Positions 1,223-33,780 are shown, counted from the stretch's first letter. The stretch is DNA of 64,000 bases from an uncultured Gammaproteobacteria bacterium (GCA_963813895.1 CAWFAS010000004.1:453100-517099), one strand, 5' to 3'. The notes: generated by a model from the letters alone, not told the origin. Numbers and translations are program-made.

Positions 1223-4200
1223 ATGACTGATAAAAAACAACAAGAACAAAACAAATTGATTGATGCATTGCCTGAAATAGCAGATCTCAGCAAACAGCTC
1301 CTGGAGGAATTATACAAGCCAAATGCATCTGTCTTAAACCTCGAAAAAAGTATTGAGCAACTCATAGCATTATGCCAAACCCATCATTTATTTCGTTACC
1401 CCACTACAGGTCTTTTTTCCAAACAATATCCCCTCACGCCAGAAGCCTTGGATTCTGCGAAAGTTCAATTAGCCCTTCATATTCAGAAAATAAAAAATCA
1501 CGAAAAAGAAAATGCGACGATAACAAGCAGTCCTCTCTTGGACAGTGCAATTAAAGAGAATGCGAGAATAGCAAGCAATCCTCTCTTGGACACTGCAATT
1601 TTAGTTTCGTATGTATTAGATATGTGCCGGGAAAAAATATTGGCCACCTCAAGCACCAAACCTTCTTCAGCCCCCACCCTTGTTAATAGCGAACCTCCAA
1701 CATTGGATGAACAGAAAACCTCTACTTTACCATCCGAACTAATTTCTGAACTATCTTTCTTGGTCATAGACATGATTAATGAGCCTATTGGGCCGAATTT
1801 TGAACGGTTTTTAGCGTTAGTTCGAGCCAATGGCTTATTTGGGCCAAAATTAAATCTATATAATATTGATACGTTTGCAGAGAAAATTAGCAGCATATTA
1901 ATTAAAAATTCACCACGTGAAACAGCACAAATACAAGAATCCATCACAAAATTAGTGCCACTTCTTACAAATTACCTGGAAAATATCAAAAAACTAACTC
2001 CTACTGGTATAAAACCTCTGGAGGGAATTATTGGAAAAGGCGAGAAGCTTTTTAACACCCTTACACAATCTTTCGAAAATATAAAAGACAGGAAGGAGAA
2101 GAAATTTAATTGGTCCATTGGCATAAATATGCCTGAGCAATTGACAAAAGATTTCTGGCAAGCCTGTGCTCACGCAGGGCTGCTAACACCTCCTAAAGAT
2201 CAGTCAGAAAAAAATTTTACACCTTTGCAGCTACTAAAAATTAACCTCTTGCGTATAAAAAAAGATATGGACACTTTGCCCGATGACCAGAAATTAGTCA
2301 TCGCCCAGCAAATACAAAATGTTGAAGATTTAGCTAAAGGATTTTCTCTGATGGGAATTATTGAAAAAGGTGAGAAATTTTTCAGCGCACTTTCACAATT
2401 TTTTAATAATATGCAGGATAATAAGGATAAGAAATTTAATTGGTCGATCAGCATAAGTACCCTTGAGGATTTGGCAAATGATTGCTGGACAGCCTGCAAT
2501 AATGCAGGATTGCTAAAGCTTCCTGCCGACCACGAGCAGGCTGATAAAATTTCTACAATTTTGATTAATCTCTCACCTTTAAAAGAACAATTTACCCATG
2601 ATAAGAGGGGGTTATTCGTCCAGCAAATAGAAACCATTGAAGATTTAGTTGCAGCGGTCGATGAGGCAGTTGTTCGTTTACCTAGAGATAGATTTACAGA
2701 GGCGAACGTTATTAAATCGTATCAAGACTTTATGGACGAAATTCTTAAAAATATGCAGGTGATACGCGAATTACCTGATCAATCTGCTGCTAATGGCGTA
2801 AACATCGCTAATAAGTGTTTACCTTTATTACATGCTTGTGGTGTCTTCCCGGAATATAGGCAATCAGACTATTCACTCTCTGAAATTATCAATTTAATTG
2901 ATGATCAGAAATTGCATGCAAGACATTCTAAAATTATCACCTTAATTGATGAACAGGATGCAAAACACCGTGCTCTAACGTTGGATGATAGTAAAGAAGA
3001 GATAAGCTCTTTAAATAAGTGCCAAACCCTGATTGAAAATTTTAAAAACATCATAGAAGAACTTAATATTAAACTTGAGAGAACATCCAATAATTCTGCC
3101 ACTTCGGCTCCAGACATCATCATAATTGACGATGAAAAGAATGAAACACCCTTGGCTTCCTCTTTTTCAGCGGGACAATCCTCGACTTCCTCTTCGAACT
3201 CCTCTTTTTCACTGGGACAACCCTCGACTCCCTCTTCGACCTCCTCTTTTTCAGTGGAACAACCCTCGACTTCCTCTTCGACCTCCTCTTTTTCGCTGGG
3301 ACAACCCTCGACTTCCGCTCAAATTGGAGTTAACAAGTACCCTGGTACAAAGGCTATTGAGAAAATTGAAGACTGTGGTATGGCCTTAACTAAAGCACTT
3401 AAAGATTTAGAAAATCAATTTGATACAACGATCCTCAATGTTAGCTTTAAAAAAATTACAGGTGACGGCGGTTTATTATCGAAGTTTACGAATGCTTGTA
3501 AGATGACGGGAATACCTGAATCGAAACAACTATCTGAACAAGGGTTTCCAGTATTCGATTTATCAAAAATAGAAGCATTTATGTTTCCTTGCTTTGAAGA
3601 TTTACTTCAGGCATGTCATCAAGCAAACCTAATTAGAAGTCTACCACCTAAAGAAAACTATACGGATATAGGCGGCATATTATTAACTCTTGCTGAATTA
3701 GAATTATCTGTGAAGATTAATCAGCAGGGAGAGGAAGCCGTATCCCTAAAAAAACCCCTTAAGCTGCTCAATAGGTTAATTAATCTTTTAACGCTAATTC
3801 CAGCTACAATGAAACTTCTCCAGGAAATAGCGGATAAAGTTACAGCAGTCAATTTAAGTATAGAAGCGGAAAAACAGCAATTTACGAACGAGCGTAATAA
3901 CTTTTTGAACCGAACTCTTTCTCACACATCATCCACTACATTTAGCGCGATAACTTCCAGCCTGATGCCACCTCTTGAAACAGTTGAAACAGCCACATCA
4001 ATTTATTCAAAAATTCGACAGGGAACTTTTAAAACACACTTCTCATTCCTGGACAGTTGTGAACACCAAAAATTAATTGATACACTGGTTCACGCGATAG
4101 TTGAGGGTAACATTCTAGTTACTGAAAATCTTTGCAAATATTTAAAAAATAAAAATTCCTCTGACTTTACAAATGATAAAAAAAGCGGAAGTAGGGAGGA

Positions 4201-5017
4201 AGGTGATTGGCAAGCTCATATTGTTCAGATTGCAAATGAAACTGCCAATGATGCTGCCAGCTTAGCCTTAGGTATTTTAAAACCCCCTCCATCTAGCAAT
4301 TTAAATCCCTCACGTTCACATAGAACTCATTCAGAGCATGTTGTAGGAACACGGCATACATCTAATAGCTCCTCTTTTCCACGCTTGAGTGCCGATCAAA
4401 CTCCACTGACGCCAGTAAGAAATAGTACTGGTACTTTTCTTTCTACAACAAATATTAGACTAGAATCCGGAAGTTTCTCAACTTTTAGCACACCCCCTTT
4501 GGTACGCGCTAAAACTCCAACAATACCTCCAAGTTCTTATTTAGATAATGAGAGCTTTAATAGCAACAATGGGACAACGACAATTTCCAGAACTAAATCT
4601 GATCGCAATCTGGATAAACAAGAGCAGCTGCCACCCCTACCCAGGAGTACCTCTTCAGTAAGTCGCTACAATACATCTTCATCTAACCCTGCGACCTTAC
4701 CAAAAAGCGCTTCAAGTAGAGGGTTTGAGGGTAGAAGAGTTAGTCTAATGGGATCTATAAACCGACCAGACGCCTCATTGGAGAAAGATAAAAAACAACA
4801 GGCAAACGATAATAATTTGTCAGAGTTAGATAATGTAGAAAATTCTTTGGCTACATTAGAAAAACAGGGTTACGGAGAATTGGGAGTTGGACTGGGACGG
4901 AGAACTCAAAGTTTCAATTTTCAAACCGTAAACAAATTAACACCAAATGGCGGGCGCAAAAAGGAAGGAACAGATAAAGATAACCATCAAGAAAATAACG
5001 GAGTCACTAAAAAATAA
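1223..5017 (+). CDS. large hypothetical repeat-containing protein (1264 aa), putative secreted effector-like protein
   Basis: Long uninterrupted ORF. It contains an internal ~120-aa duplication (KFNWSIGINMPEQLTKDFWQACAHAGLL versus KFNWSISISTLEDLANDCWTACNNAGLL). It carries a tandem SSFSxGQPSTSSSTS repeat and an S/T/P-rich C-terminal third. No enzymatic motif was recognised. Confidence 0.6.
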   Translation: MTDKKQQEQNKLIDALPEIADLSKQLLEELYKPNASVLNLEKSIEQLIALCQTHHLFRYPTTGLFSKQYPLTPEALDSAKVQLALHIQKIKNHEKENATITSSPLLDSAIKENARIASNPLLDTAILVSYVLDMCREKILATSSTKPSSAPTLVNSEPPTLDEQKTSTLPSELISELSFLVIDMINEPIGPNFERFLALVRANGLFGPKLNLYNIDTFAEKISSILIKNSPRETAQIQESITKLVPLLTNYLENIKKLTPTGIKPLEGIIGKGEKLFNTLTQSFENIKDRKEKKFNWSIGINMPEQLTKDFWQACAHAGLLTPPKDQSEKNFTPLQLLKINLLRIKKDMDTLPDDQKLVIAQQIQNVEDLAKGFSLMGIIEKGEKFFSALSQFFNNMQDNKDKKFNWSISISTLEDLANDCWTACNNAGLLKLPADHEQADKISTILINLSPLKEQFTHDKRGLFVQQIETIEDLVAAVDEAVVRLPRDRFTEANVIKSYQDFMDEILKNMQVIRELPDQSAANGVNIANKCLPLLHACGVFPEYRQSDYSLSEIINLIDDQKLHARHSKIITLIDEQDAKHRALTLDDSKEEISSLNKCQTLIENFKNIIEELNIKLERTSNNSATSAPDIIIIDDEKNETPLASSFSAGQSSTSSSNSSFSLGQPSTPSSTSSFSVEQPSTSSSTSSFSLGQPSTSAQIGVNKYPGTKAIEKIEDCGMALTKALKDLENQFDTTILNVSFKKITGDGGLLSKFTNACKMTGIPESKQLSEQGFPVFDLSKIEAFMFPCFEDLLQACHQANLIRSLPPKENYTDIGGILLTLAELELSVKINQQGEEAVSLKKPLKLLNRLINLLTLIPATMKLLQEIADKVTAVNLSIEAEKQQFTNERNNFLNRTLSHTSSTTFSAITSSLMPPLETVETATSIYSKIRQGTFKTHFSFLDSCEHQKLIDTLVHAIVEGNILVTENLCKYLKNKNSSDFTNDKKSGSREEGDWQAHIVQIANETANDAASLALGILKPPPSSNLNPSRSHRTHSEHVVGTRHTSNSSSFPRLSADQTPLTPVRNSTGTFLSTTNIRLESGSFSTFSTPPLVRAKTPTIPPSSYLDNESFNSNNGTTTISRTKSDRNLDKQEQLPPLPRSTSSVSRYNTSSSNPATLPKSASSRGFEGRRVSLMGSINRPDASLEKDKKQQANDNNLSELDNVENSLATLEKQGYGELGVGLGRRTQSFNFQTVNKLTPNGGRKKEGTDKDNHQENNGVTKK
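3153..3320. repeat. 48-bp in-frame tandem repeat (~3.5 units) inside the 1264-aa gene
   Basis: The unit tcctctttttcaSTgggacaaccctcgacttcctcttcgacc is repeated and encodes SSFSLGQPSTSSSTS units. It is a VNTR candidate. Confidence 0.8.
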
Positions 5018-5059: not shown

Positions 5060-5224
5060 ACATGGTTGCCACTAGAGGCTACCCCCTTCCTAACCTTCCC
5101 CCGCAAGCGGGGGAAGGGACTGGTTCGGTACGATAAGTTACGCTATTGTTGCCAATCCCGTACTAGCTCGAGCAAGTTCCTTCCCCCCCTTGCGGGGGAA
5201 GGTTAGGAAGGAGGCAGCATCTAT
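5060..5224. repeat. family A palindromic MITE-like element (ends ccccttcctaaccttcccccgcaagcgggggaagg)
   Basis: ~165-bp element with long terminal inverted repeats. Copies occur at 7107, 23119, 28431, 41816 and 43299. Confidence 0.85.
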
Positions 5225-5346
5225 TAGCACTTTTACATGAAGTAGCTCAATATTTAGCGGCTTTTTGATTATTTAGGAATAGTAATGCGCGTTTAGAAGT
5301 ATTCAACAATACCGCTTGTCCGCGGGACGACGGAGTGAGCAGTTAT

Positions 5347-6372: not shown

Positions 6373-6642
6373 TTAGACGTCTCCGTTGCTTAAAATGAAT
6401 TGTGCGTGTTTAAAACCATTGCTCGGGCACAGCAGAAGAACTGCTTTATGTATAATAGTATAGCTGTAATTGGCTATTTTTGTTTTATGGCAGTTAATTA
6501 ATGGATTTCGATTTGTAAGAAGTTTTTATTATGTCATACCGGCGGATGCAGGTATCTGGAAATTATTTGACCTCAAGCCTGTAATTCAGGTGTTGAGTGT
6601 CACTTAGCTTGTTAATGTTTTTAGCGGCGTAAGCTTAATATT

Positions 6643-6947
6643 TTGTAATTATTCAGCAGGGTAGCCCTCAAGCTTGCGGGATAGAGTTTGCCGTCCGACC
6701 CGCCCCCTCTCCCGCAGGGGAGAGGGGATATAGAGCCAGAAGAAGCGATACTGCTTGGATGATAGATATCTAAGATAGAGACTCTGCTAGTCAGAAATAG
6801 CATAAAATCTTATCCTCGCTCTATATTTTCTTTCTGCTCTATATCCCCTCTCCCCTCGCGGGAGAGGGTTAGGGAGAGGGGGTGCGTCGGCCTGCACACT
6901 CTATCCTACAAGCAAGAGAGGGCCACCCCGCTGAATAATTACAATAT
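6643..6947. repeat. composite palindromic element with family B core (ctctcccgcRgggagagggg) and terminal inverted repeats ttgtaattattcagc
   Basis: Terminal IRs at 6643-6670 and 6920-6947. Internal GGGAGAGGG palindromes are present. Confidence 0.7.
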
Positions 6948-6959
6948 ATTTTTTCAAAA

Positions 6960-7036: not shown

Positions 7037-7106
7037 TTTTTAGAATTATTTATTACATTACTTTCTTTGACTAGTTTGATTAGAAGACTCAGATAAAGTG
7101 CCCCCA

Positions 7107-7268
7107 GATGCTGCCCCCTTCCTAACCTTCCCCCGCAAGCGGGGGAAGGAACTTGCTCGAGCTTGTACGGGATTGGCAGCAATAGCGTAACTTTCCTACC
7201 GAACCAGTCCCTGCCCCCGCTTGCGGGGGAAGGTTAGGAAGGGGGTAGCTTCTAGTGGCAACCATTTG
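7107..7268. repeat. family A MITE-like element, inverted relative to the copy at 5060
   Basis: Same termini and inner core as 5060..5224 in reverse orientation. Confidence 0.85.
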
Positions 7269-10328: not shown

Positions 10329-10384
10329 TGGGTAGGACCTTTTGTTTAGAATTGGGAAACTCTGTGATCCCCTCACTTTAGGGG

Positions 10385-10620
10385 CTTTGTTGAATAATTC
10401 TCAGATTGGACTCCCTTCTCCCGCTTGCGGGAGAAGGGTCGGGGATGAGGGTGTTAAGGTTGGCATTTTTTTGTGATTTCATTCCATTTTAAACTTCTAA
10501 ATCATTACTAGCCAATGCCAATTCATACACCCTCACCCCTAACCCCTCTCCCACAAGTGGGAGAGGGGAATTATTCAACAATGCCCTCGCAGGAGAGGAG
10601 TACAGTGCTTTCCCACAAAT
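10385..10620. repeat. family B MITE-like element (arms ctcccgcttgcgggagaagggtcggggatgagggtg)
   Basis: Inverted-repeat arms surround a variable core. Copies occur at 16409, 40485, 60359 and elsewhere. Confidence 0.8.
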
Positions 10621-10631
10621 TAAATACTAAC

Positions 10632-11910
<1,279 letters not shown>

Positions 11911-11925
<15 letters not shown>

Positions 11926-23625: not shown

Positions 23626-24351
23626 ATGATATCTGTGGCAGAGCAAAGTGTAGGTAGTTATTTTCGTCCAACAACCCTAAAAAAGGGAACAAATCATAAA
23701 AATAATGCTTTTTATCAATCACTAAAAGCTTCCGGACTTCAGAAATTAGCTAAGACGGGAGGGCTAGACACAAATTGTGATTTAAAATTATTAGCGCCTT
23801 ATTTCTCGCAAGGTAAATCTATTTTAGAAGTTGGCGCAGGTTATGGAAGAGTCATAGATTATTTATTAACATATAATTTTTCAAAAAATATTACAGGAAT
23901 TGAGCGATGCAGTGGAATGCACAACTATCTAAAGACGCGTTATAAAAGTAATAATAATATAAACTTATTACAGTGCGATTTATTTAACCTTAGCCAAACC
24001 ATAACCTACAAGAAATTTGACGTTATATTATGGTTATGGGGTGGAATTTACGATTTTTCTCCCTTAGAACAACAAAGAGCAGTAGAAATTCTATCAAAAC
24101 TTCTTAATAAAAATGGCACACTAATTTTAGACACCCTTACTGAAGGAACAACTCCACTTGGCGCTAAAAGAAGCGGGAAAATAACCGATGGGGAATACCT
24201 TCTTAAAAGCAATAATGCAACAATACGCGTGTATGGCCCATCTATGCTAGAAATAAGACAATATGCTTTTTTATCGGGACTTTCTAACGTTCAACATATT
24301 AATTTCTATACTGACACTAAAAGGGAAAGGGCTCTACATGTGCTTAGTTAA
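23626..24351 (+). CDS. class I SAM-dependent methyltransferase
   Basis: Motif I ILEVGAGYGRVIDYL and motif II-like NITGIE. Confidence 0.65.
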   Translation: MISVAEQSVGSYFRPTTLKKGTNHKNNAFYQSLKASGLQKLAKTGGLDTNCDLKLLAPYFSQGKSILEVGAGYGRVIDYLLTYNFSKNITGIERCSGMHNYLKTRYKSNNNINLLQCDLFNLSQTITYKKFDVILWLWGGIYDFSPLEQQRAVEILSKLLNKNGTLILDTLTEGTTPLGAKRSGKITDGEYLLKSNNATIRVYGPSMLEIRQYAFLSGLSNVQHINFYTDTKRERALHVLS

Positions 24352-25730
24352 TGTCCAACTCGAATACATCCTTTAACAAAAGAGCACATGTCAGGAAATT
24401 CTTTATGAACTATGCCGTCAACAGTACTCAGCAAGTGCTTATCTTCTAAAGGCATTTCACCGCTATTTCTTATACCCATGTGTAATTCAACATTATTATG
24501 AAAGTAATCGAATTTTGCCAATTGAAAAACATCATAATAAGGGGTACCACCAATATTAAATCTATCGGAAATAAATTCTTGCTGATAACGCATTAACAGT
24601 GACCTAATTTCATGAAGATCAGATACATAACTGCTTCTGGACCGTGAATGCGGAGTAAATCCAGGAGCGGTCGGAAATTGTAAAGAATAATAAAGGGGGT
24701 TTCCCTGAGGATTATACATATCAAATATTTCTGGATGCATAATAATTGGCGGATAATTCCTAATCTCATACTCGTTCGTATAAACATACTGCAAACCTGC
24801 TATTGGCGCGGATAAATTGTCCCGCGCCGGGACAAAAGCTGGCTGAGCTCCAACAGCTACATTTATGAGGTACCTCACAGTATCAACAATATATGCACTT
24901 GGTTTACCTTGGTATTCATTCAATATAATTGAGAACACTAAATTCCATAGGGGTTGGTTACGTAAAAATTCACCGTTAACCCAAATAGAGCGATCGAAAT
25001 AATGATAAAATTCCCTCCAATCCGGGTCACTCAAATGATCAAACCATCGTTTTGAAAAAAATAAAATTTCTGCATTCCATGATTGAGTAAATCGGGGATG
25101 ATTAGCAATCTGTCGAAAAATTTCCCAATGCGTCATTAATGATTTAGGTGTATTCACTGATAAATCAAATAGTTTTCTTAGTTTGAAGTGTTTTTTTTCT
25201 TCGGAAATTTTTGGCAGCATAAATATTGAACGAGCCCCTGCTGTCAAGTCCCAAATAAAAATTGGTTGATGTGTTTTTCCAGGATTTAACATTCGCCAAG
25301 CTCCAAATACCTGACCCGGGTAAATCAAACCTTGAAAAGGTACAGTTCGTTCTTCAAGAGGTAAAAAAAGTTCAAAGGTATTGTGCAATACACACGCAAC
25401 CGGATTAGAATTCCCATTATAATCCAAACCCTCGCGTACTTTGGAATCTATGGACGGATCCGTCAGAGGCACAATATCTCCCTTTGCATTGGGCAACATC
25501 AATAAAGCCCGCCTCAACAACAAACTTCCATAGGGATATGTAGTTTTAGCTAACCAATATTCTTTACCAGGATTTAATCGATCAATAATCCTAGCAAATT
25601 CAGGATTAACTTTAGCCACCTGTTCCCTGACCTGGTCCCAAGTTTGAATTTCCAACTTTCCTTTAAAAGCTAAGCTCATGATCGTATCCAAATTAATTAT
25701 AAAGAAATTTCCCTTAGGGCCTGTCGTCAC
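24348..25730 (-). CDS. hypothetical protein (460 aa)
   Basis: Long ORF convergent with, and overlapping by 4 nt, the methyltransferase gene. No recognisable motif. Confidence 0.5.
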   Translation of the reverse strand: MTTGPKGNFFIINLDTIMSLAFKGKLEIQTWDQVREQVAKVNPEFARIIDRLNPGKEYWLAKTTYPYGSLLLRRALLMLPNAKGDIVPLTDPSIDSKVREGLDYNGNSNPVACVLHNTFELFLPLEERTVPFQGLIYPGQVFGAWRMLNPGKTHQPIFIWDLTAGARSIFMLPKISEEKKHFKLRKLFDLSVNTPKSLMTHWEIFRQIANHPRFTQSWNAEILFFSKRWFDHLSDPDWREFYHYFDRSIWVNGEFLRNQPLWNLVFSIILNEYQGKPSAYIVDTVRYLINVAVGAQPAFVPARDNLSAPIAGLQYVYTNEYEIRNYPPIIMHPEIFDMYNPQGNPLYYSLQFPTAPGFTPHSRSRSSYVSDLHEIRSLLMRYQQEFISDRFNIGGTPYYDVFQLAKFDYFHNNVELHMGIRNSGEMPLEDKHLLSTVDGIVHKEFPDMCSFVKGCIRVGH

Positions 25731-25893
25731 AGCTCCCCGTTACGTCGTCCCGCGGCTTGTCCGCGGGATCCAGGGGGCTTGGCAAATGATTTCCTTGCGC
25801 TCTCAGCAAGTTTTAGGCTCTTTCTGGATCCCGCGGACAAGCCGCGGGACGACGTAACGGGGAGCTGTGACGACAGGCCCTAATACCCTTGTA
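25723..25893. repeat. family D ~170-bp perfect palindrome (cgtcgtcccgcggcttgtccgcgggatcc arms)
   Basis: A second copy lies at 39075..39245. Partial copies lie at 49605..49690 and 27525..27600. Confidence 0.85.
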
Positions 25894-27383: not shown

Positions 27384-27676
27384 ATACCCGATACACTTAG
27401 GATTGCGGTGTTAGAGTAGTCCAGCTTGTGCTGAGATTTATGAAGTACATCCTGTACTTCACCCTTCGGGCCGCTGTCGCGTTCAAATTTGTTCCTACAA
27501 ATTTGTGTTCGATCTGATTGAGTAAAAACGCAGGAATAGTCGACTTGTCGTCCCGGCATGGAAGCCGGGACGACTATGTCGGTTATTCTTATTTCGAGTT
27601 TTTACGATTGAAGATCGGACGAAGATCAGTGCAAGATGGGCTGCTCTAACACCGCAATCCTAAGTGTATCGGGTAT
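27384..27676. repeat. MITE bounded by an inverted pair of family E palindromes, with a family D-like fragment inside
   Basis: atacccgatacacttaggattgcggtgttagag at 27384 and its reverse complement at 27644. The internal segment gtcgtcccggcatggaagccgggacgac is family D-like. Confidence 0.7.
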
Positions 27677-28397: not shown

Positions 28398-28430
28398 ATT
28401 GTATTTCTTTATTTGTAACTATTCAGCATA

Positions 28431-28594
28431 TTAACCAAAGAGCCAATAGAAACCGCCCCCATCCTAACCTTCCCCCGCAAGCGGGGGAAGGAACTGTTGG
28501 GCAGAAAACTAAAAGTCCGCTCCTTATAGTCCCTTCCCCCGCAAGCGGGGGAAGGTTAGGATGGGGGCGGTTTCTATTGGCTCTTTGGTTAATA
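28431..28594. repeat. family A element with perfect TIR ttaaccaaagagccaatagaaaccgcccccatcctaacc
   Basis: Full-length copy. Flanked by ggctctttggttaatatgctaaatagttat, as at 23270. Confidence 0.85.
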
Positions 28595-28840
28595 TGCTAA
28601 ATAGTTATGTTTATTTTAAGTTGTTTTACCAAACGTCTTTTATACATAGACCTTTAATCCCCGCCAGCTGGCGGGGGCACCCTATCCTCACCCAGAAACT
28701 CCCGTTACATTAGGATCCATTGCCACAGACATGCCCCCCCTACGCCTTCTAATCAGCTATTGACCCAACCCCCCAATAAATACGGTATTTAATATCACCA
28801 ACAATCATGCTACAAATATTCATCAGATCATTAAAATAGA

Positions 28841-30835
28841 GTGCTTATAATGAATTGGCTTTCTCAAACCACACGTTTTTTACAATTAGATCTACCTCTC
28901 GGTAAAGAAACATTAATGCCTATTAACTTTTCAGGCAGTGAAACTTTATCGCAGCCTTTTAATTTCAGCCTGCAGGCCATTTCGGATAATATCAATATCG
29001 ACCCCGCAGCTATCCTCGGCAAACCCATTACCCTTAGCATCCACACCAATGATCGCGGTCTAATCCGCTACTTCAATGGCTACGTTACTAAATTCCACGC
29101 CGAGCAAGTGGTTGAAGGCAACCGCTATTACCGCGCAGAAATTCAACCCTGGCTATCCTTCCTAAATTTCAGCAGTGACTGCCAAGTGTTCCAGCAAAAA
29201 ACGGTCGTGCAAATCGCCGAAGCAATCTTTAAACAATTCAAGTTTACCCACTTTGACACTACCGGGCTGTCAAACTCCTACAAACCTCGCAACTATTGCG
29301 TCCAATACCGTGAAACGTCATTACATTTTCTCTCACGATTATTTCAAGAAGAAGGTATTTATTATTTCTTTAAGCATGAAGACGGCAAACACACCCTGAT
29401 GCTGGCTGATTCACCAACCGCCATCAAACCTGCCACCGACGCATTGGCGGTTTATACCGCAGGCTCCCATCAAGCCCCAGCTATTACTCAGTTCACGCGC
29501 CAATATCAGTTCTACAGTGGCAAGGCCGCCCACACCGACTATAATCATACAACGCCGGATAATTCACTGCATGCCCAACAACAAGGCAGCGCTAAACTAA
29601 AAGCAGCTGAAAATTACGAACAATTTGATTACCCCGGTCTATATGAAGACAACAGCAGCGGTAATTCACGCGCACAACAGCGCTTCGAAGCCCAAGAGGC
29701 GCAATATGATTCACTTCACGGGAAAAGTAATTACGTCAGTTTCAGTTGCGGCTCTAAATTCTCCATAGAAAACGCTCCCGCTGCCAGCGACAACGGCGAT
29801 TACGCCATCACCACCGTCATGCACTACGCCACTGATGGCAGCTACTTGCACGACGATACAGGCAACCAATCTTATTACAATACCTTCATCTGCATCCCCG
29901 CCACTACTCCCTACCAATCCTCAATCCATTACCATAAACCCCTCGTCCATGGCGCCCAATCAGCATGGGTGGTCGGTGGACCTAATGAAGAACTGGAAAC
30001 CAGTGATTACGGGCAAGTTAAAGTCCAATTCCATTGGGATAGAAAGGGCAAGAAAGATGAATACAGCTCCTGCTGGCTACGCGTTGCGCAGCTATGGGCA
30101 GGCAAAAACTGGGGCGCCTTATTTATCCCCCGTATCGGCCAGGAAGTCTTAGTGCATTTTTTAGAAGGCGATCCTGATCGACCGGTGATCATGGGCACAG
30201 TTTACAATGCAGATAATATGCCCCCCTACTCTTTACCAGGCTCACAGTCACGCAGCGGCATACGCACTTCTTCTACCAAAGGCGCAGCTGCAGATGAATA
30301 TAATGAACTGTATTTTGAAGACCGGCATAACTCTGAAGAAATTTATATTCAGGCGCAGAAAGATTTTAATAAGCTGGTGAAGAACAATCTTGGGGTGAAG
30401 GTGCAGAATGATCATACTCATGTGACCAAACATGATTCAAGCATCACCGTGGGCAATGATCATAGCCACACCACAAGCAATAACTCAACAGTTAGCGTCG
30501 GACATGATTTTATGCATAGCACTGCAAATAACTCTTTTGTCAGTGTAAGCCAAAACTATACTCAGTCTACTGGTAGTAATTCTACGCATACAGTAGCCAA
30601 AGATTACAGCCATGAAACAGGTAATAATGCTACTCAAATTGTCGGCAACGATTATACCCACCTTACCGGAAACAGCGTTAATCAAGATATAGCTCAAAAT
30701 TTAAATATCACCATTGGAAATACTGGCACGATGCAAGCAAAGCAATCCATCACCCTACGAGTAGGGGGAAATAGTTTATTAATTAACATGAAAGGTATTT
30801 TCATTAATGGAACAGAAGTAAAAGTGAATGAATAA
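28841..30835 (+). CDS. vgrG: VgrG-like spike protein (gp27/gp5 fusion) of a type VI secretion / phage tail-like system
   Basis: The N-terminus MNWLSQTTRFLQLDLPLGKETLMPINFSGSETLSQPFNFSLQAISDN, then ...GIYYFFKHEDGKHTLMLADS and ...RVAQLWAGKNWGALFIPRIGQEVLVHFLEGDPDRPVIMGTVYNADNMPPY, form the VgrG core. The C-terminus carries beta-helix repeats (TVGNDHSHTTSNNSTVSVGHD...). An alternative ATG lies at 28850. Confidence 0.85.
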   Translation: MLIMNWLSQTTRFLQLDLPLGKETLMPINFSGSETLSQPFNFSLQAISDNINIDPAAILGKPITLSIHTNDRGLIRYFNGYVTKFHAEQVVEGNRYYRAEIQPWLSFLNFSSDCQVFQQKTVVQIAEAIFKQFKFTHFDTTGLSNSYKPRNYCVQYRETSLHFLSRLFQEEGIYYFFKHEDGKHTLMLADSPTAIKPATDALAVYTAGSHQAPAITQFTRQYQFYSGKAAHTDYNHTTPDNSLHAQQQGSAKLKAAENYEQFDYPGLYEDNSSGNSRAQQRFEAQEAQYDSLHGKSNYVSFSCGSKFSIENAPAASDNGDYAITTVMHYATDGSYLHDDTGNQSYYNTFICIPATTPYQSSIHYHKPLVHGAQSAWVVGGPNEELETSDYGQVKVQFHWDRKGKKDEYSSCWLRVAQLWAGKNWGALFIPRIGQEVLVHFLEGDPDRPVIMGTVYNADNMPPYSLPGSQSRSGIRTSSTKGAAADEYNELYFEDRHNSEEIYIQAQKDFNKLVKNNLGVKVQNDHTHVTKHDSSITVGNDHSHTTSNNSTVSVGHDFMHSTANNSFVSVSQNYTQSTGSNSTHTVAKDYSHETGNNATQIVGNDYTHLTGNSVNQDIAQNLNITIGNTGTMQAKQSITLRVGGNSLLINMKGIFINGTEVKVNE

Positions 30836-30892
30836 TCGCACTCTCCTCTAGCTTAGGCTTTGTTGAATAATTCATTTAACCATTGCAGGAAA

Positions 30893-31015
30893 GCACTGTA
30901 TCCCCTCTCCCCTTGCGTGAGAGGGAACATAGAGTTTTGGATAGTTAGGAAGAAAATTATTCAACAAAGCACCTTGCGGGAGAAGGGAATCCATCTGGGA
31001 ATTATTCAACAACGC
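30893..31015. repeat. GGGAGAGGG/gaattattcaacaa-type palindromic repeat
   Basis: cccctctccccttgcgtgagaggg...ccttgcgggagaaggg with flanking ttgttgaataattc / gaattattcaacaa. Confidence 0.65.
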
Positions 31016-31066
31016 CTCTAGCTTACGACAAGATAATTAAGAGAATACAACTGAAAGGAAATTTTT

Positions 31067-31948
31067 ATGACAAAATCACCTGCCCGAATAAAAGATCGAG
31101 TCATTAACCCTTACCATGGAGATGGGTTAATTGACTCAGGCAATCCTACCGTCACTTTTGAAGGGCAACCTATCGCTTGTGCAGGTGATTACGCAATATT
31201 TGAGGATGGCGTTCAAGGAGTTATCATCGAAGGAAATGCCTGCGTGATGGTTAATGGAAAACGCATTGCCTTGTTAGGCGATAACACTCTATTGAATGGA
31301 GTGATATGCAAGGGTGCCAAAACTATACAGGTTAAGGAAGGTAAGCCTTTTGTATTCCTTGGAGCAAATGTACATATTGGAAAAAATGTTTCATTCAATT
31401 GCCGGTCAGATACAACCGTTGCTGACGCTAAGAAAGAAGATGAAGAATATATTTATTATGTGGTGAATTCTATTGGGGGGAAAGTAACGTTAGCAACGTT
31501 TGGGGTATGGCAAATATTGGACTCCATTGCAAACATTGATCTGGGCGAGTATTTTGAAGAGGATCGCTGGGAAGAAGATCCAGAAGAAGGTGGAATTAGT
31601 AATGCGGGTCGCCCAAAAGCAGCAACAGTTACTATTATTGCAGCAGCCGCAAATGAAGCAAATCAAATTAGCATGCGACAGGAGCTTATATCCAAGATTA
31701 AATTATTGCATCCCATAACAAAATCCCACATAACAACTTCAGCCGGTGAATTATTAAAAGCGGTATATAACGTATATGACGCTGAAGTTTATAGCGCAAG
31801 ATTATATGATATTAATCCTATTGGGATCTACAAAGATCCGGATTATCAATTTGAAATAAAAAAAATAATGACCGGACCTTCACTTGTTCAAACCCCTAAA
31901 AATGGCTATCACTGGGAATCATTATTTATTTGGGTAGTTAAAAAATGA
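31067..31948 (+). CDS. PAAR-like domain protein with a ~190-aa C-terminal extension (putative toxin)
   Basis: The N-terminal ~100 aa (SPARIKDRV...GQPIACAGD...NGKRIALLGD) fit the PAAR/DUF4150 repeat pattern. It lies immediately downstream of vgrG. The C-terminal domain is unrecognised. Confidence 0.55.
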   Translation: MTKSPARIKDRVINPYHGDGLIDSGNPTVTFEGQPIACAGDYAIFEDGVQGVIIEGNACVMVNGKRIALLGDNTLLNGVICKGAKTIQVKEGKPFVFLGANVHIGKNVSFNCRSDTTVADAKKEDEEYIYYVVNSIGGKVTLATFGVWQILDSIANIDLGEYFEEDRWEEDPEEGGISNAGRPKAATVTIIAAAANEANQISMRQELISKIKLLHPITKSHITTSAGELLKAVYNVYDAEVYSARLYDINPIGIYKDPDYQFEIKKIMTGPSLVQTPKNGYHWESLFIWVVKK

Positions 31949-32784
31949 AGCTTATCCAAAAAAAATATTTTTTCCTTTTTATATTCATTTTTTTCATTTC
32001 GTTAATATGGATTCTTCTTTCAAAAGCCAATAATTATAACTCCAATTTAATCGAAAAATATGAGGATGCTATGAATAATGGTTACCTTATTTGTCCTAAA
32101 CCGAATAAACCACCTATTTACGATAATCTACAAAAAGAATTTTCACTGTATTTAACAAAAGCCAAACAAAATGATGCAAAGGGACAATTTATTGTAGGAT
32201 TTGCTTACCTTAACGGTTTGGGCACCTCCATCAATATAGATCAAGGTGAGCATTGGCTTTATAGATCTGCATCCCAAGGATATGCGCCAGCAGAAGCTCT
32301 CTATGGATTTACTTTATTGCAGAAGACGAAGCATCTAGGAATGAATTCTCAAAAAAATAAAATATTACACCAGCAAGAGTTTCAAGAGCCTTTAAAATGG
32401 TTGAAACAATCAGCATTACAAGGCGACAAAACAGGCAAATTTTCTTTAGGCATCTACTATCTCGATACTGACAATTACAATGAAGGGATACGTATCCTGA
32501 ATGAATTAGCGACCCAAGGAAATGATGCTATATCTGCCACTACACAAGTTGTATTAGGTGATATGAGTTTTCATGGCGACGGCTCCGTCCAAGAACTAAC
32601 GCAAGCAATTAATTGGTATAAAAAAGCTCTGAAGCAAAAACCACCCATAATTTATGCTGCAGAAGCAATGATAGCAATGCAGTTTATATATTCTTCACCC
32701 GGTGATTTATATGATGAAAAGCAAGCGGCCTACTGGGAAAAAAGACATGCTGAGTTTATAAAAATACTTAGTTGTGGGGTTTAA
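31945..32784 (+). CDS. Sel1-repeat protein with an N-terminal TM/signal segment (candidate immunity protein)
   Basis: MKLIQKKYFFLFIFIFFISLIWILLS, then Sel1 units (GQFIVGFAYLNGLGTSINIDQGEHWLYRSASQG; GKFSLGIYYL...GIRILNELATQGN). ATGA overlap with the upstream gene. Confidence 0.6.
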   Translation: MKLIQKKYFFLFIFIFFISLIWILLSKANNYNSNLIEKYEDAMNNGYLICPKPNKPPIYDNLQKEFSLYLTKAKQNDAKGQFIVGFAYLNGLGTSINIDQGEHWLYRSASQGYAPAEALYGFTLLQKTKHLGMNSQKNKILHQQEFQEPLKWLKQSALQGDKTGKFSLGIYYLDTDNYNEGIRILNELATQGNDAISATTQVVLGDMSFHGDGSVQELTQAINWYKKALKQKPPIIYAAEAMIAMQFIYSSPGDLYDEKQAAYWEKRHAEFIKILSCGV

Positions 32785-32854
32785 GTAGATCTGCTGGGTC
32801 ACCTCAACAAATCTACTCAAACCGTCTTGCATTAAAAACAAACAAATGTACAAT

Positions 32855-32884
32855 ATACCCGATACACTTAGGATTTCGGTGTAT
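32855..32884. repeat. family E short palindrome
   Basis: atacccgatacacttaggatttcggtgtat. Confidence 0.75.
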
Positions 32885-32967
32885 CCATAAAAAGGTTGCA
32901 AGATTATCAGAAAACAATTGCTATTATTTTTTCTTGTTACCAATGACGTACAAATAAGGAAATCCTA

Positions 32968-33780
32968 ATGAATAAGCCCGATGAATATGTACTAAAAGTA
33001 GGCGCACAGGCTGCAGATAGACTACATTTATTAGATGAAATTTATGGACCCTATACCCGAGAATTTTTAATAAAAGTTGGGTTATCAGCTAATTTACAGA
33101 TTCTCGAAGTGGGTTGTGGAACTGGCAATACAGCTTGTTGGCTTGCTGAACAATTAGGTGAGCATGGAAATGTGACTGGCGTAGATATTAGTTCTGCGCA
33201 AATTGAATTAGCCAGACAGCAAGCTAGTTCCAGAAAAATAAAAAACATTCAATTCAAGGTACTTTCTGCGTCTGATCTTCATGAACTTGATAATCAATTT
33301 GATTTAGTTTTTTCCCGGTTTTTGTTAGTTCACTTAAGTGAACCAACCAAAGCATTGCAAGCAATGTATGAGCGGGTCAAGCCGCAAGGTATTTTAGCTT
33401 GTGATGAACAATTTTTAGCAGCAGCTCGGAGCTACCCCTATTCAAAAGCTTTTAATGATTCTATGCAACTTGCCTATAAGATTGTTAGAAATAAAGGCTT
33501 AGATTATGATTTTGGAGCGCGACTATATACAGAATTTAAAAAATTAAATTTAAATCGCATTCAGATACAAGCCATTCAACCGGTATTATTTCATTCATCG
33601 CAAAAAATTATTTGGCCGATGTTTTTTCAAGAAGCAGAAAATGCTTTTTTAGGGTCACAGGAGATCACTCAAATAGAATGGGATACACTGCTAAACGAAC
33701 TTAGAAAAATTGTTGCTAGCGAAGACTACTATTTTTTACCTATGCAGAATTTCCAAGTCTGGGGCAAAAAACAGAACTGA
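32968..33780 (+). CDS. class I SAM-dependent methyltransferase
   Basis: ILEVGCGTGNTACWLAEQLGEHGNVTGVDIS. Confidence 0.75.
   Translation: MNKPDEYVLKVGAQAADRLHLLDEIYGPYTREFLIKVGLSANLQILEVGCGTGNTACWLAEQLGEHGNVTGVDISSAQIELARQQASSRKIKNIQFKVLSASDLHELDNQFDLVFSRFLLVHLSEPTKALQAMYERVKPQGILACDEQFLAAARSYPYSKAFNDSMQLAYKIVRNKGLDYDFGARLYTEFKKLNLNRIQIQAIQPVLFHSSQKIIWPMFFQEAENAFLGSQEITQIEWDTLLNELRKIVASEDYYFLPMQNFQVWGKKQN

Follow-up and report, generated by a model that had tools for sequence, protein, structure and literature searches.

We analysed a 64,000-nt stretch of DNA from an uncultured Gammaproteobacteria bacterium (GCA_963813895.1, CAWFAS010000004.1:453100-517099), referred to throughout as the window, for a three-gene module that probably belongs to a type VI secretion system (T6SS). 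The first gene encodes a VgrG spike protein, the second a PAAR protein with a C-terminal extension, here called the cargo domain, and the third a Sel1-repeat protein. Positions are counted from the first letter of the window, and the genes and their parts are as follows:

28850-30835, plus strand: vgrG (TssI), T6SS spike gene, 661 aa, identified by profile matches, with an alternative GTG start at 28841.
31067-31948, plus strand: PAAR-effector gene, 293 aa, a complete open reading frame (ORF) directly 3' of vgrG.
31067-31402, plus strand: PAAR domain (PF05488) and conserved post-PAAR linker, residues 1-112 of the 293-aa effector.
31403-31948, plus strand: 181-aa cargo domain, residues 113-293 plus the stop codon, a putative toxin of an unannotated family.
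31945-32784, plus strand: Sel1-repeat protein, 279 aa, a putative periplasm-facing immunity protein, with an ATGA overlap with the stop codon of the PAAR-toxin gene.
31951-32034, plus strand: N-terminal signal anchor of the Sel1 protein, residues 3-30, its sole hydrophobic segment.

The VgrG of the window was recorded as the 661-aa form starting at the ATG at 28850 (P0124). It scored 593 bits against TIGR03361 (cut-off 186) and 300 bits against Phage_GPD (PF05954), and the matches to Phage_base_V (PF04717) and Gp5_trimer_C (PF22178) likewise exceeded their gathering scores. Thus, the spike gene announced in the original prediction is present as an ORF (28841/28850-30835) with its full domain set above curated cut-offs, and the fused gp27-like, gp5 OB-fold and beta-helix domains place the product in the T6SS VgrG family. 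The nearest homologues were 67%, 52%, 51% and 48% identical, while a search of genome contigs gave a top match of 38% identity. Two of the nearest homologues, P0125 (67%) and P0128 (51%), are located in auxiliary modules, and P0130 (48%) lies, with a PAAR protein, inside a complete tssB/C/E/F/J/K/L/M-hcp-tssA cluster. The gp27/gp5 and PAAR folds are common to phage baseplates and extracellular contractile injection systems, and the Pfam names are phage-derived, which would agree with a spike and tip taken from a phage tail or such an injection system rather than a T6SS. We consider this origin highly improbable, as the fused gp27-gp5 VgrG scores at three times the cut-off of the T6SS-specific TIGR03361, no tail, sheath or baseplate genes are found nearby, and the nearest VgrG homologues are annotated as, or embedded in, T6SSs.

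The gene following vgrG was correctly described as PAAR-like: the first ~75 residues of the 293-aa product of 31067-31948 matched PAAR_motif (PF05488) with 50.7 bits (cut-off 27), and the PAAR-like motifs PARIKD, PIACAGD and KRIALLGD are readable in it. With a Pfam domain above the gathering score and a gene adjoining vgrG, the protein qualifies by sequence as a PAAR tip protein. The NCBIfam equivalog-domain model NF033420 gave only 29 bits (cut-off 124), and an AlphaFold2 (AF2) model of the whole protein, built on a 3-sequence alignment only, had a mean predicted local distance difference test score (pLDDT) of 31. When 5.8 billion proteins were searched through a word index with the whole PAAR protein as query, only the protein itself and two others, sharing the PAAR part alone, were returned. 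The PAAR parts of P0002 and P0003 are 54-60% identical to that of the window, and their C-termini are different. The C-terminus of P0003 is an SLT lytic-transglycosylase domain, i.e., a peptidoglycan hydrolase, and a 64-aa tail is found in the closest related metagenome-assembled genome (MAG), so the C-termini of this PAAR subfamily are interchangeable. SLT domains are typical periplasm-acting T6SS payloads. A 1.9-kb Logan contig carries an identical PAAR gene together with a 279-aa Sel1 gene. The C-terminal extension had been described as unrecognised and about 190 aa long; residues 113-293 indeed match no family, and the length is 181 aa.

To find relatives of the cargo domain, residues 113-293 were compared by an exhaustive phmmer search with 1.84 billion cluster-representative proteins. 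Eleven credible homologues with 25-41% identity were obtained, and two further matches were rejected as repeat-protein artefacts. In every homologue the domain occupies the extreme C-terminus, while the N-terminal part varies. The carrier is a PAAR protein in the window, P0249 and P0250 and a VgrG in P0245, P0251 and P0255, and in P0244 and P0247 the domain stands behind unannotated N-termini. One C-terminal domain is thus attached to differing delivery N-termini, as in polymorphic toxins. No match to the domain was found in Pfam, NCBIfam or PDB by sequence and profile searches, and a search of metagenome contigs with the domain alignment yielded no confirmed relative. A tblastn search against plasmids returned PAAR domains only, without the cargo domain, and a literature search on the motif strings of the domain gave nothing usable. 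These sequence comparisons indicate a rare family of putative toxins that lacks annotation, and the cargo domain is the first of its members to be noticed.

The alignment of 12 cargo-domain sequences (A2) revealed the motifs YxYYVVN and FExxRW, a Gly/Ala-rich stretch, MPxxGGVL, DYxxLIKxAMTGP and the C-terminal HWEFLFIWVVK. The invariant positions G115, L117, I152 and W177 are of a structural type. Modeled by AF2 with this alignment, the domain reached moderate confidence (pLDDT 74, predicted template modelling score 0.71). The model is globular alpha/beta: three N-terminal strands lead into a disordered loop, acidic and Gly/Ala-containing (domain residues 54-83), after which come a long helix, a beta-hairpin, a second helix and finally a strand at the C-terminus. 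A Foldseek search of the model against PDB and BFVD yielded no match with E ≤ 1e-3, TM-scores reaching ~0.2 at most, and no significant likeness to known toxin folds or families (Pfam Ntox/Tox, NCBIfam, PDB) was detected. The original prediction had suggested that the PAAR C-terminus may be a new toxin fold and had asked for a structure prediction, which has thus returned no significant structural neighbour; nor did Pfam, NCBIfam, PDB or Foldseek reveal a recognisable housekeeping domain. The absence of a match to known families and folds agrees with that suggestion, and a new fold is possible, though unproven. A helical pore-forming toxin had also been considered, in view of the stretch rich in Gly and Ala and of the putative membrane-bound immunity proteins described below, but the domain has no transmembrane segment and its model is globular alpha/beta. 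Pore formation is therefore retained as just one possible envelope-directed activity.

The third gene was found as originally described, with its ATG overlapping the stop codon of the PAAR gene (ATGA) and a hydrophobic signal anchor at residues 3-30. Its product matched Sel1 (PF08238) with 46.7 bits (cut-off 30.7) and PDB entries of Sel1-repeat proteins with E-values down to 5e-22, and is therefore a Sel1-like repeat protein. To see whether this pairing is conserved, the gene neighbourhoods of eight loci with available context were compared, namely the window, L087, L088, L089, L090, L091, L092 and L093. At all eight, the next gene begins between 25 bp inside and 15 bp past the toxin stop. In five, the coupled gene encodes a homologous exported Sel1 protein (the window, L087 with P0249, L089 with P0250, L091 with P0244 and L092 with the VgrG-fused P0245); four of these have an N-terminal anchor and that of L092 a lipobox. 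The Sel1 partners are mutually homologous; the window protein is 30% identical to that of L089 over the full length (E 1e-38) and 47% identical to the truncated one of L087.

At the remaining three loci, L088 (P0255), L090 (P0251) and L093 (P0247), the coupled gene encodes a polytopic protein of ~170 aa with about four transmembrane segments. These proteins are homologous to each other (29-37% identity, E down to 4e-27), and the toxin domains of the same three loci are each other's closest relatives (39-43% identity). The gene directly downstream thus co-varies with the toxin domain at eight of eight loci, as expected of an immunity gene. Alternative carriers, an obligatory coupled downstream gene and co-variation are the features by which polymorphic toxins and their immunity proteins are generally recognised in genomes. 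They support the view that the cargo domain behaves as a polymorphic toxin domain, and of all the evidence that from the gene neighbourhoods is the strongest. The toxin/immunity arrangement proposed for the window therefore has comparative support, with a coupled exported or membrane partner at eight of eight loci and a Sel1 homologue at five. As all partners are exported or membrane-embedded, the periplasm or the inner membrane would be the site of action.

The locus L089 replicates the entire module, with a vgrG (41% identical), a PAAR-toxin gene and a Sel1 gene with a 4-bp overlap. It is located among housekeeping genes, and no core T6SS genes were present within 8 kb. At 5922-7947 of L089, vgrG is followed by a 101-aa ORF repeating the C-terminal end of VgrG (...ITLKVGNTVLLLNADGIYI...), so this spike gene looks split or partly duplicated. 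In L091, a 262-aa ORF (1960-2745) downstream of the Sel1-type gene extends past the contig end. In L093 (8001-9598; GCA_021773195.1, JAJFKN010000060.1), the toxin-domain homologue has an unannotated N-terminus of 140 aa, which is neither PAAR nor VgrG, and a four-transmembrane partner. This contig appears plasmid-like and carries resolvase, integrase, ParA-like and HicB genes; that the toxin/partner pair lies among such mobile-element genes suggests that the pair may also travel on mobile elements.

We consider it probable that the three genes form an auxiliary spike, effector and immunity module of a T6SS, working in the following way. VgrG would form the trimeric spike, and the PAAR domain (residues 1-112) would cap its tip, so that the covalently attached 181-aa C-terminal domain is carried as cargo into a neighbouring Gram-negative cell. 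There, the cargo domain would exert its presumed biochemical activity, and hence its putative toxicity, in the periplasm or on the cytoplasmic membrane of the target. The Sel1 protein, co-translated via the ATGA overlap, would be fixed in the inner membrane by its anchor, expose its repeats to the periplasm and there bind and block the cargo domain, thereby protecting the producing cell and its kin. According to this scheme, one toxin subfamily would be neutralised by exported Sel1-type proteins and another by the ~170-aa four-transmembrane protein, and the apparatus that fires the spike would be encoded elsewhere in the genome.

The original prediction had regarded the module as an orphan, with no T6SS core genes in the window. 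A Pfam scan covered every ORF of 120 aa or more in the window that did not overlap another (six shadow ORFs inside larger genes were left out). As had been claimed, no tssA-M, hcp or clpV gene was among them, but 64 kb out of a 656-kb contig is too little to call the genome T6SS-less, and the indirect evidence favours the presence of a T6SS. First, the GC content at third codon positions (GC3) of vgrG is 0.459, within the range of the housekeeping genes of the window (0.40-0.50). Second, a related module exists in the sister MAG (below), and third, the homologue P0130 lies in a complete T6SS cluster. The comparison of composition with housekeeping genes, proposed earlier, thus gave a divided result, since the PAAR-toxin gene (GC3 0.299; cargo part 0.30) and the Sel1 gene (0.289) are low, like other low-GC accessory genes of the window (0.24-0.32). 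A host-like vgrG (0.46) next to a toxin/immunity pair of 0.30/0.29 fits a resident spike gene behind which the cargo has been exchanged.

The closest genome by ThrS (91% identity) is represented by P0005 (HVV69491.1), and the closest PAAR protein is P0002 (HVV69019.1; GCA_035546635.1). Based on their neighbouring accession numbers, both appear to come from one assembly, the sister MAG. In GCA_035546635.1, at a genomic locus different from that of the window module, a vgrG with 59% identity in its C-terminus precedes the gene for a PAAR protein of 60% identity and a different tail. The contig ends inside vgrG, which suggests that several vgrG copies exist in that genome. In the same stretch (L080, 1034-3662; DASZWJ010000028.1), the PAAR gene is followed by genes for a cytoplasmic-looking protein of 202 aa and three paralogous signal-peptide proteins of ~200 aa, which may represent a separate effector with an immunity array.

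Among the relatives of ThrS with a source name, only MAGs labelled 'Gammaproteobacteria bacterium' were found, and the named taxa at 70-72% identity were Thiohalophilus, Thioalkalispiraceae and Granulosicoccaceae. The best PDB matches of KdsB and Ung were 3tqd and 3tr7, 30-60 bits above the next entries. We take both to be Coxiella burnetii structural-genomics entries (unconfirmed; a literature check on the codes found nothing), and with this identity they suggest a Coxiellales/Legionellales affinity. The surroundings of the module had been described as typical of an intracellular Dot/Icm lifestyle. The Sel1 protein is real, but the 'ankyrin' match (21.7 bits, cut-off 27.3) and the 'kinase' match (24.5 bits, cut-off 31.7) are both sub-threshold, and there is no Dot/Icm gene in the 64-kb window. 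The accompanying claim that such bacteria normally lack a T6SS runs counter to published work: T6SSs occur in restricted clades of Legionellaceae (bioRxiv 10.1101/2024.10.21.619444), and in a symbiont of the Legionellales a partial, degenerate T6SS is reported together with three orphan VgrGs (bioRxiv 10.64898/2026.04.11.717937).

Three repeat elements resembling miniature inverted-repeat transposable elements (MITEs) lie at or within the module; no strand is assigned to them:

28416-28607: palindromic MITE-like element ('family A') in the ung-vgrG spacer, 192 bp, with 80-nt arms of 95% complementarity and a 32-nt loop.
30855-31017: MITE of a third family in the vgrG-PAAR spacer, bounded by terminal inverted repeats of 19 nt (AGGCTTTGTTGAATAATTC) and perhaps flanked by CTAGCTT duplications.
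32855-32882: 28-nt repeat ('family E'), a solo MITE terminal repeat, with a full copy at 27384-27676.

The family A element, originally placed at 28431-28594, is a real palindrome and slightly wider. Its 24-nt core CCTTCCCCCGCAAGCGGGGGAAGG has 26 matches with at most 3 mismatches, at many intergenic sites (0 expected), and is absent from every homologous locus compared. The family E repeat at 32855 is likewise real; it has four copies in the window (5347, 27384, 27649 on the minus strand and 32855; 0 expected by chance), and in the full element two inverted arms of 51 nt each occupy 27384-27434 and 27626-27676. Further copies of the third family, alignable with 30855-31017, were found at 10382-10586 and 17695, and its insertion accounts for the 231-bp spacer between vgrG and the PAAR gene, as the distance from vgrG to the next gene is 13-37 bp in homologous modules.

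The claim that the cassette is bounded by MITEs did not hold. The elements on the two sides come from different families, a third family is inserted inside the module, and a window-wide scan detected at least 17 palindromic MITE-like elements in intergenic spaces. With MITEs in most intergenic spaces and flanks of different families, the elements mark no cassette boundary and tell nothing about the mobility of the module; they are a general property of the intergenic DNA of this genome. The 28-nt inverted pair 27649/32855, the only matching pair around the module, was also tried as the ends of a composite element and rejected, since it encloses the housekeeping gene ung as well and the repeat is a common MITE terminus. 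Additional palindromes are located at 5067-5229, 6637-6950, 7099-7260, 11732-11912, 16409-16585, 18826-19007, 23097-23287, 25714-25883, 39100-39225, 40483-40613, 41821-41950, 43316-43444 and 49768-50013. They form several families, with about one element per 3-4 kb and almost all of them intergenic, and many share G/C-rich hairpin cores, e.g., CCCCGCAAGCGGGG or CCCGCGGACAAGCCGCGGG. The largest inverted repeat (45663-45813 / 46130-46280) has 151-nt arms of 98% complementarity, 316 nt apart, between uvrB and a 201-aa ORF.

Several observations weigh against a functional T6SS module. The 64-kb window has no T6SS core gene, and a MITE separates vgrG from the PAAR gene. The window copy of the cargo domain reads HITTSAGELL in place of MPxxGGVL, with Ala at a nearly invariant Gly. 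Across the 12 aligned domains no invariant polar residue marks an enzyme active site and no catalytic set is evident, while the model, globular alpha/beta and lacking a transmembrane segment, is unlike a classical helical pore-former. The missing core genes, the MITE insertion and the deviating motif could instead indicate a stranded relic, in which a Coxiella-like and possibly host-associated lineage has lost, or never had, a complete T6SS and the vgrG-PAAR-Sel1 genes are non-functional and decaying, and the Legionellales symbiont with its degenerate T6SS and three orphan VgrGs offers a parallel (bioRxiv 10.64898/2026.04.11.717937). Against decay, the three ORFs are intact and of full length, their domain sets are complete, the tight ATGA coupling has been kept, the composition of vgrG equals that of housekeeping genes, and a homologous module is retained in the sister MAG. 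Moreover, vgrG modules distant from the core genes are normal in T6SS-positive bacteria, and L083, L084 and L089 are further examples. A relic is therefore unlikely in our view, and we retain the explanation that the genes serve as an auxiliary T6SS module.

Elsewhere in the window, the Pfam scan identified pheST, rplT, infC, thrS, tsaD, ung, dnaE, rnhB, lpxB, a galU-like gene, uvrB and kdpA, while many ORFs had no Pfam match. A gene for a PIN-domain (VapC-like) toxin (19952-20380, minus strand) and an IS110-family transposase gene (52491-53570, minus strand) are situated amid housekeeping genes. The infC ORF (13751-14179, minus strand) lacks the first ~22 positions of the IF3_N profile; infC has an unusual start codon other than ATG, GTG or TTG, and the shortfall fits such a start, which is invisible to the ORF listing. 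A scan for promoters and terminators gave results below shuffle expectation. The coding composition of the window is bimodal. A low-GC block (31067-34447, GC3 0.26-0.30) between vgrG and dnaE runs past the toxin/immunity pair and includes a class I S-adenosylmethionine-dependent methyltransferase gene (32968-33780) and a gene for a 235-aa protein (33740-34447, minus strand) with sub-threshold ankyrin matches. Large ORFs of 460-1264 aa with GC3 of 0.27-0.32 are found at 1223-5017, 20774-22681, 24348-25730, 47032-49437 and 57115-59901. None of them has a Pfam family above threshold (the 928-aa ORF has a sub-threshold Pkinase match only), and the 1264-aa and 928-aa ORFs have no PDB match.

Many large low-GC orphan ORFs are also seen in effector-rich intracellular bacteria, and Legionella uses Sel1-repeat proteins in host interaction. 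Together with the best matches of KdsB and Ung to 3tqd and 3tr7, presumably of Coxiella burnetii, this could mean that the cargo domain targets a eukaryotic host such as an amoeba, and that the Sel1 protein, instead of conferring immunity, acts as a secreted or surface-located co-factor. A strictly conserved downstream partner that co-varies with the toxin subfamily argues against such a role, and a four-transmembrane inner-membrane partner, as found in one subfamily, fits self-protection and not a co-effector. In addition, a sibling PAAR protein bears the peptidoglycan-directed SLT domain, and one homologue resides on a plasmid-like contig without host-interaction context. We find a host-directed effector quite improbable, and antibacterial delivery with self-protection by the coupled partner is the explanation that we favour.

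A more far-reaching possibility, which we put forward tentatively, is that the cargo domain founds a T6SS toxin family of its own, with a new fold, envelope-directed killing and two unrelated classes of membrane-associated immunity proteins, in an uncultured Coxiella-like gammaproteobacterium. The bacterium would then combine a T6SS weapon with a set of genes of the intracellular type. New antibacterial activities are often discovered among T6SS cargo domains, and this family, being rare (about 11 clusters in 1.84 billion), unannotated and endowed with the genomic signatures of toxin and immunity, offers a small and well-defined target for expression and structure work. The module is also one further case of a T6SS module among putative uncultured relatives of Coxiella and Legionella. 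The notion of a T6SS-less genome is unproven and not favoured by the evidence.

Auxiliary vgrG modules with specialised ('evolved') PAAR effectors are well known, e.g., those of P. aeruginosa Tse6 and the Rhs-PAAR toxins. The window has the same order of vgrG, PAAR with a C-terminal toxin domain and a tightly coupled immunity gene, and its PAAR subfamily combines a constant N-terminus with interchangeable C-termini. It differs in that the C-terminal domain fits no described toxin family or fold and has no Rhs cage, and in the window module we saw neither an N-terminal transmembrane region nor an adaptor gene of the Eag, DUF4123 or DUF2169 type. Integral-membrane immunity proteins are known for membrane-targeting T6SS toxins such as Tse4/Tsi4, Ssp6/Sip6 and VasX/TsiV2. 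Similarly, one cargo-domain subfamily is paired with the ~170-aa four-transmembrane protein, and all partners are membrane-associated, which points to the envelope as the putative site of action. Unlike Tse4, Ssp6 and VasX, to which no sequence or fold similarity was found, the cargo domain is modeled as globular alpha/beta, without transmembrane helices or long glycine zippers.

For immunity by Sel1-repeat proteins there is experimental precedent in VgrG4/Sel1E of K. pneumoniae (PMC7108748), where the P. aeruginosa Sel1-like repeat (SLR) immunity protein PA5087 and the PldB immunity proteins PA5086-5088 (PDB 5jkp) are also cited. By analogy with Sel1E and PA5086-5088, the Sel1-like-repeat protein of the window, encoded directly after a spike-borne toxin domain, would neutralise by binding. 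The toxin domain itself is neither DUF2345/RTD, as in VgrG4, nor a phospholipase D, as in PldB, and while the localisation of Sel1E was inconclusive (PMC7108748), the putative immunity proteins of the Sel1 family described here have a clear N-terminal anchor or lipobox. As in Ca. Centrionella, with a partial T6SS and three orphan VgrGs, and in the restricted Legionellaceae clades, vgrG is found at a distance from core genes, here in a possible relative of Coxiella or Legionella; unlike in Dot/Icm-bearing Legionellales, the window includes no Dot/Icm gene, and its taxonomic placement is suggested rather than settled. Taken together, the architecture of the module is of an ordinary, well-known kind, and its novelty is the payload family with two alternative families of putative membrane-associated immunity proteins.

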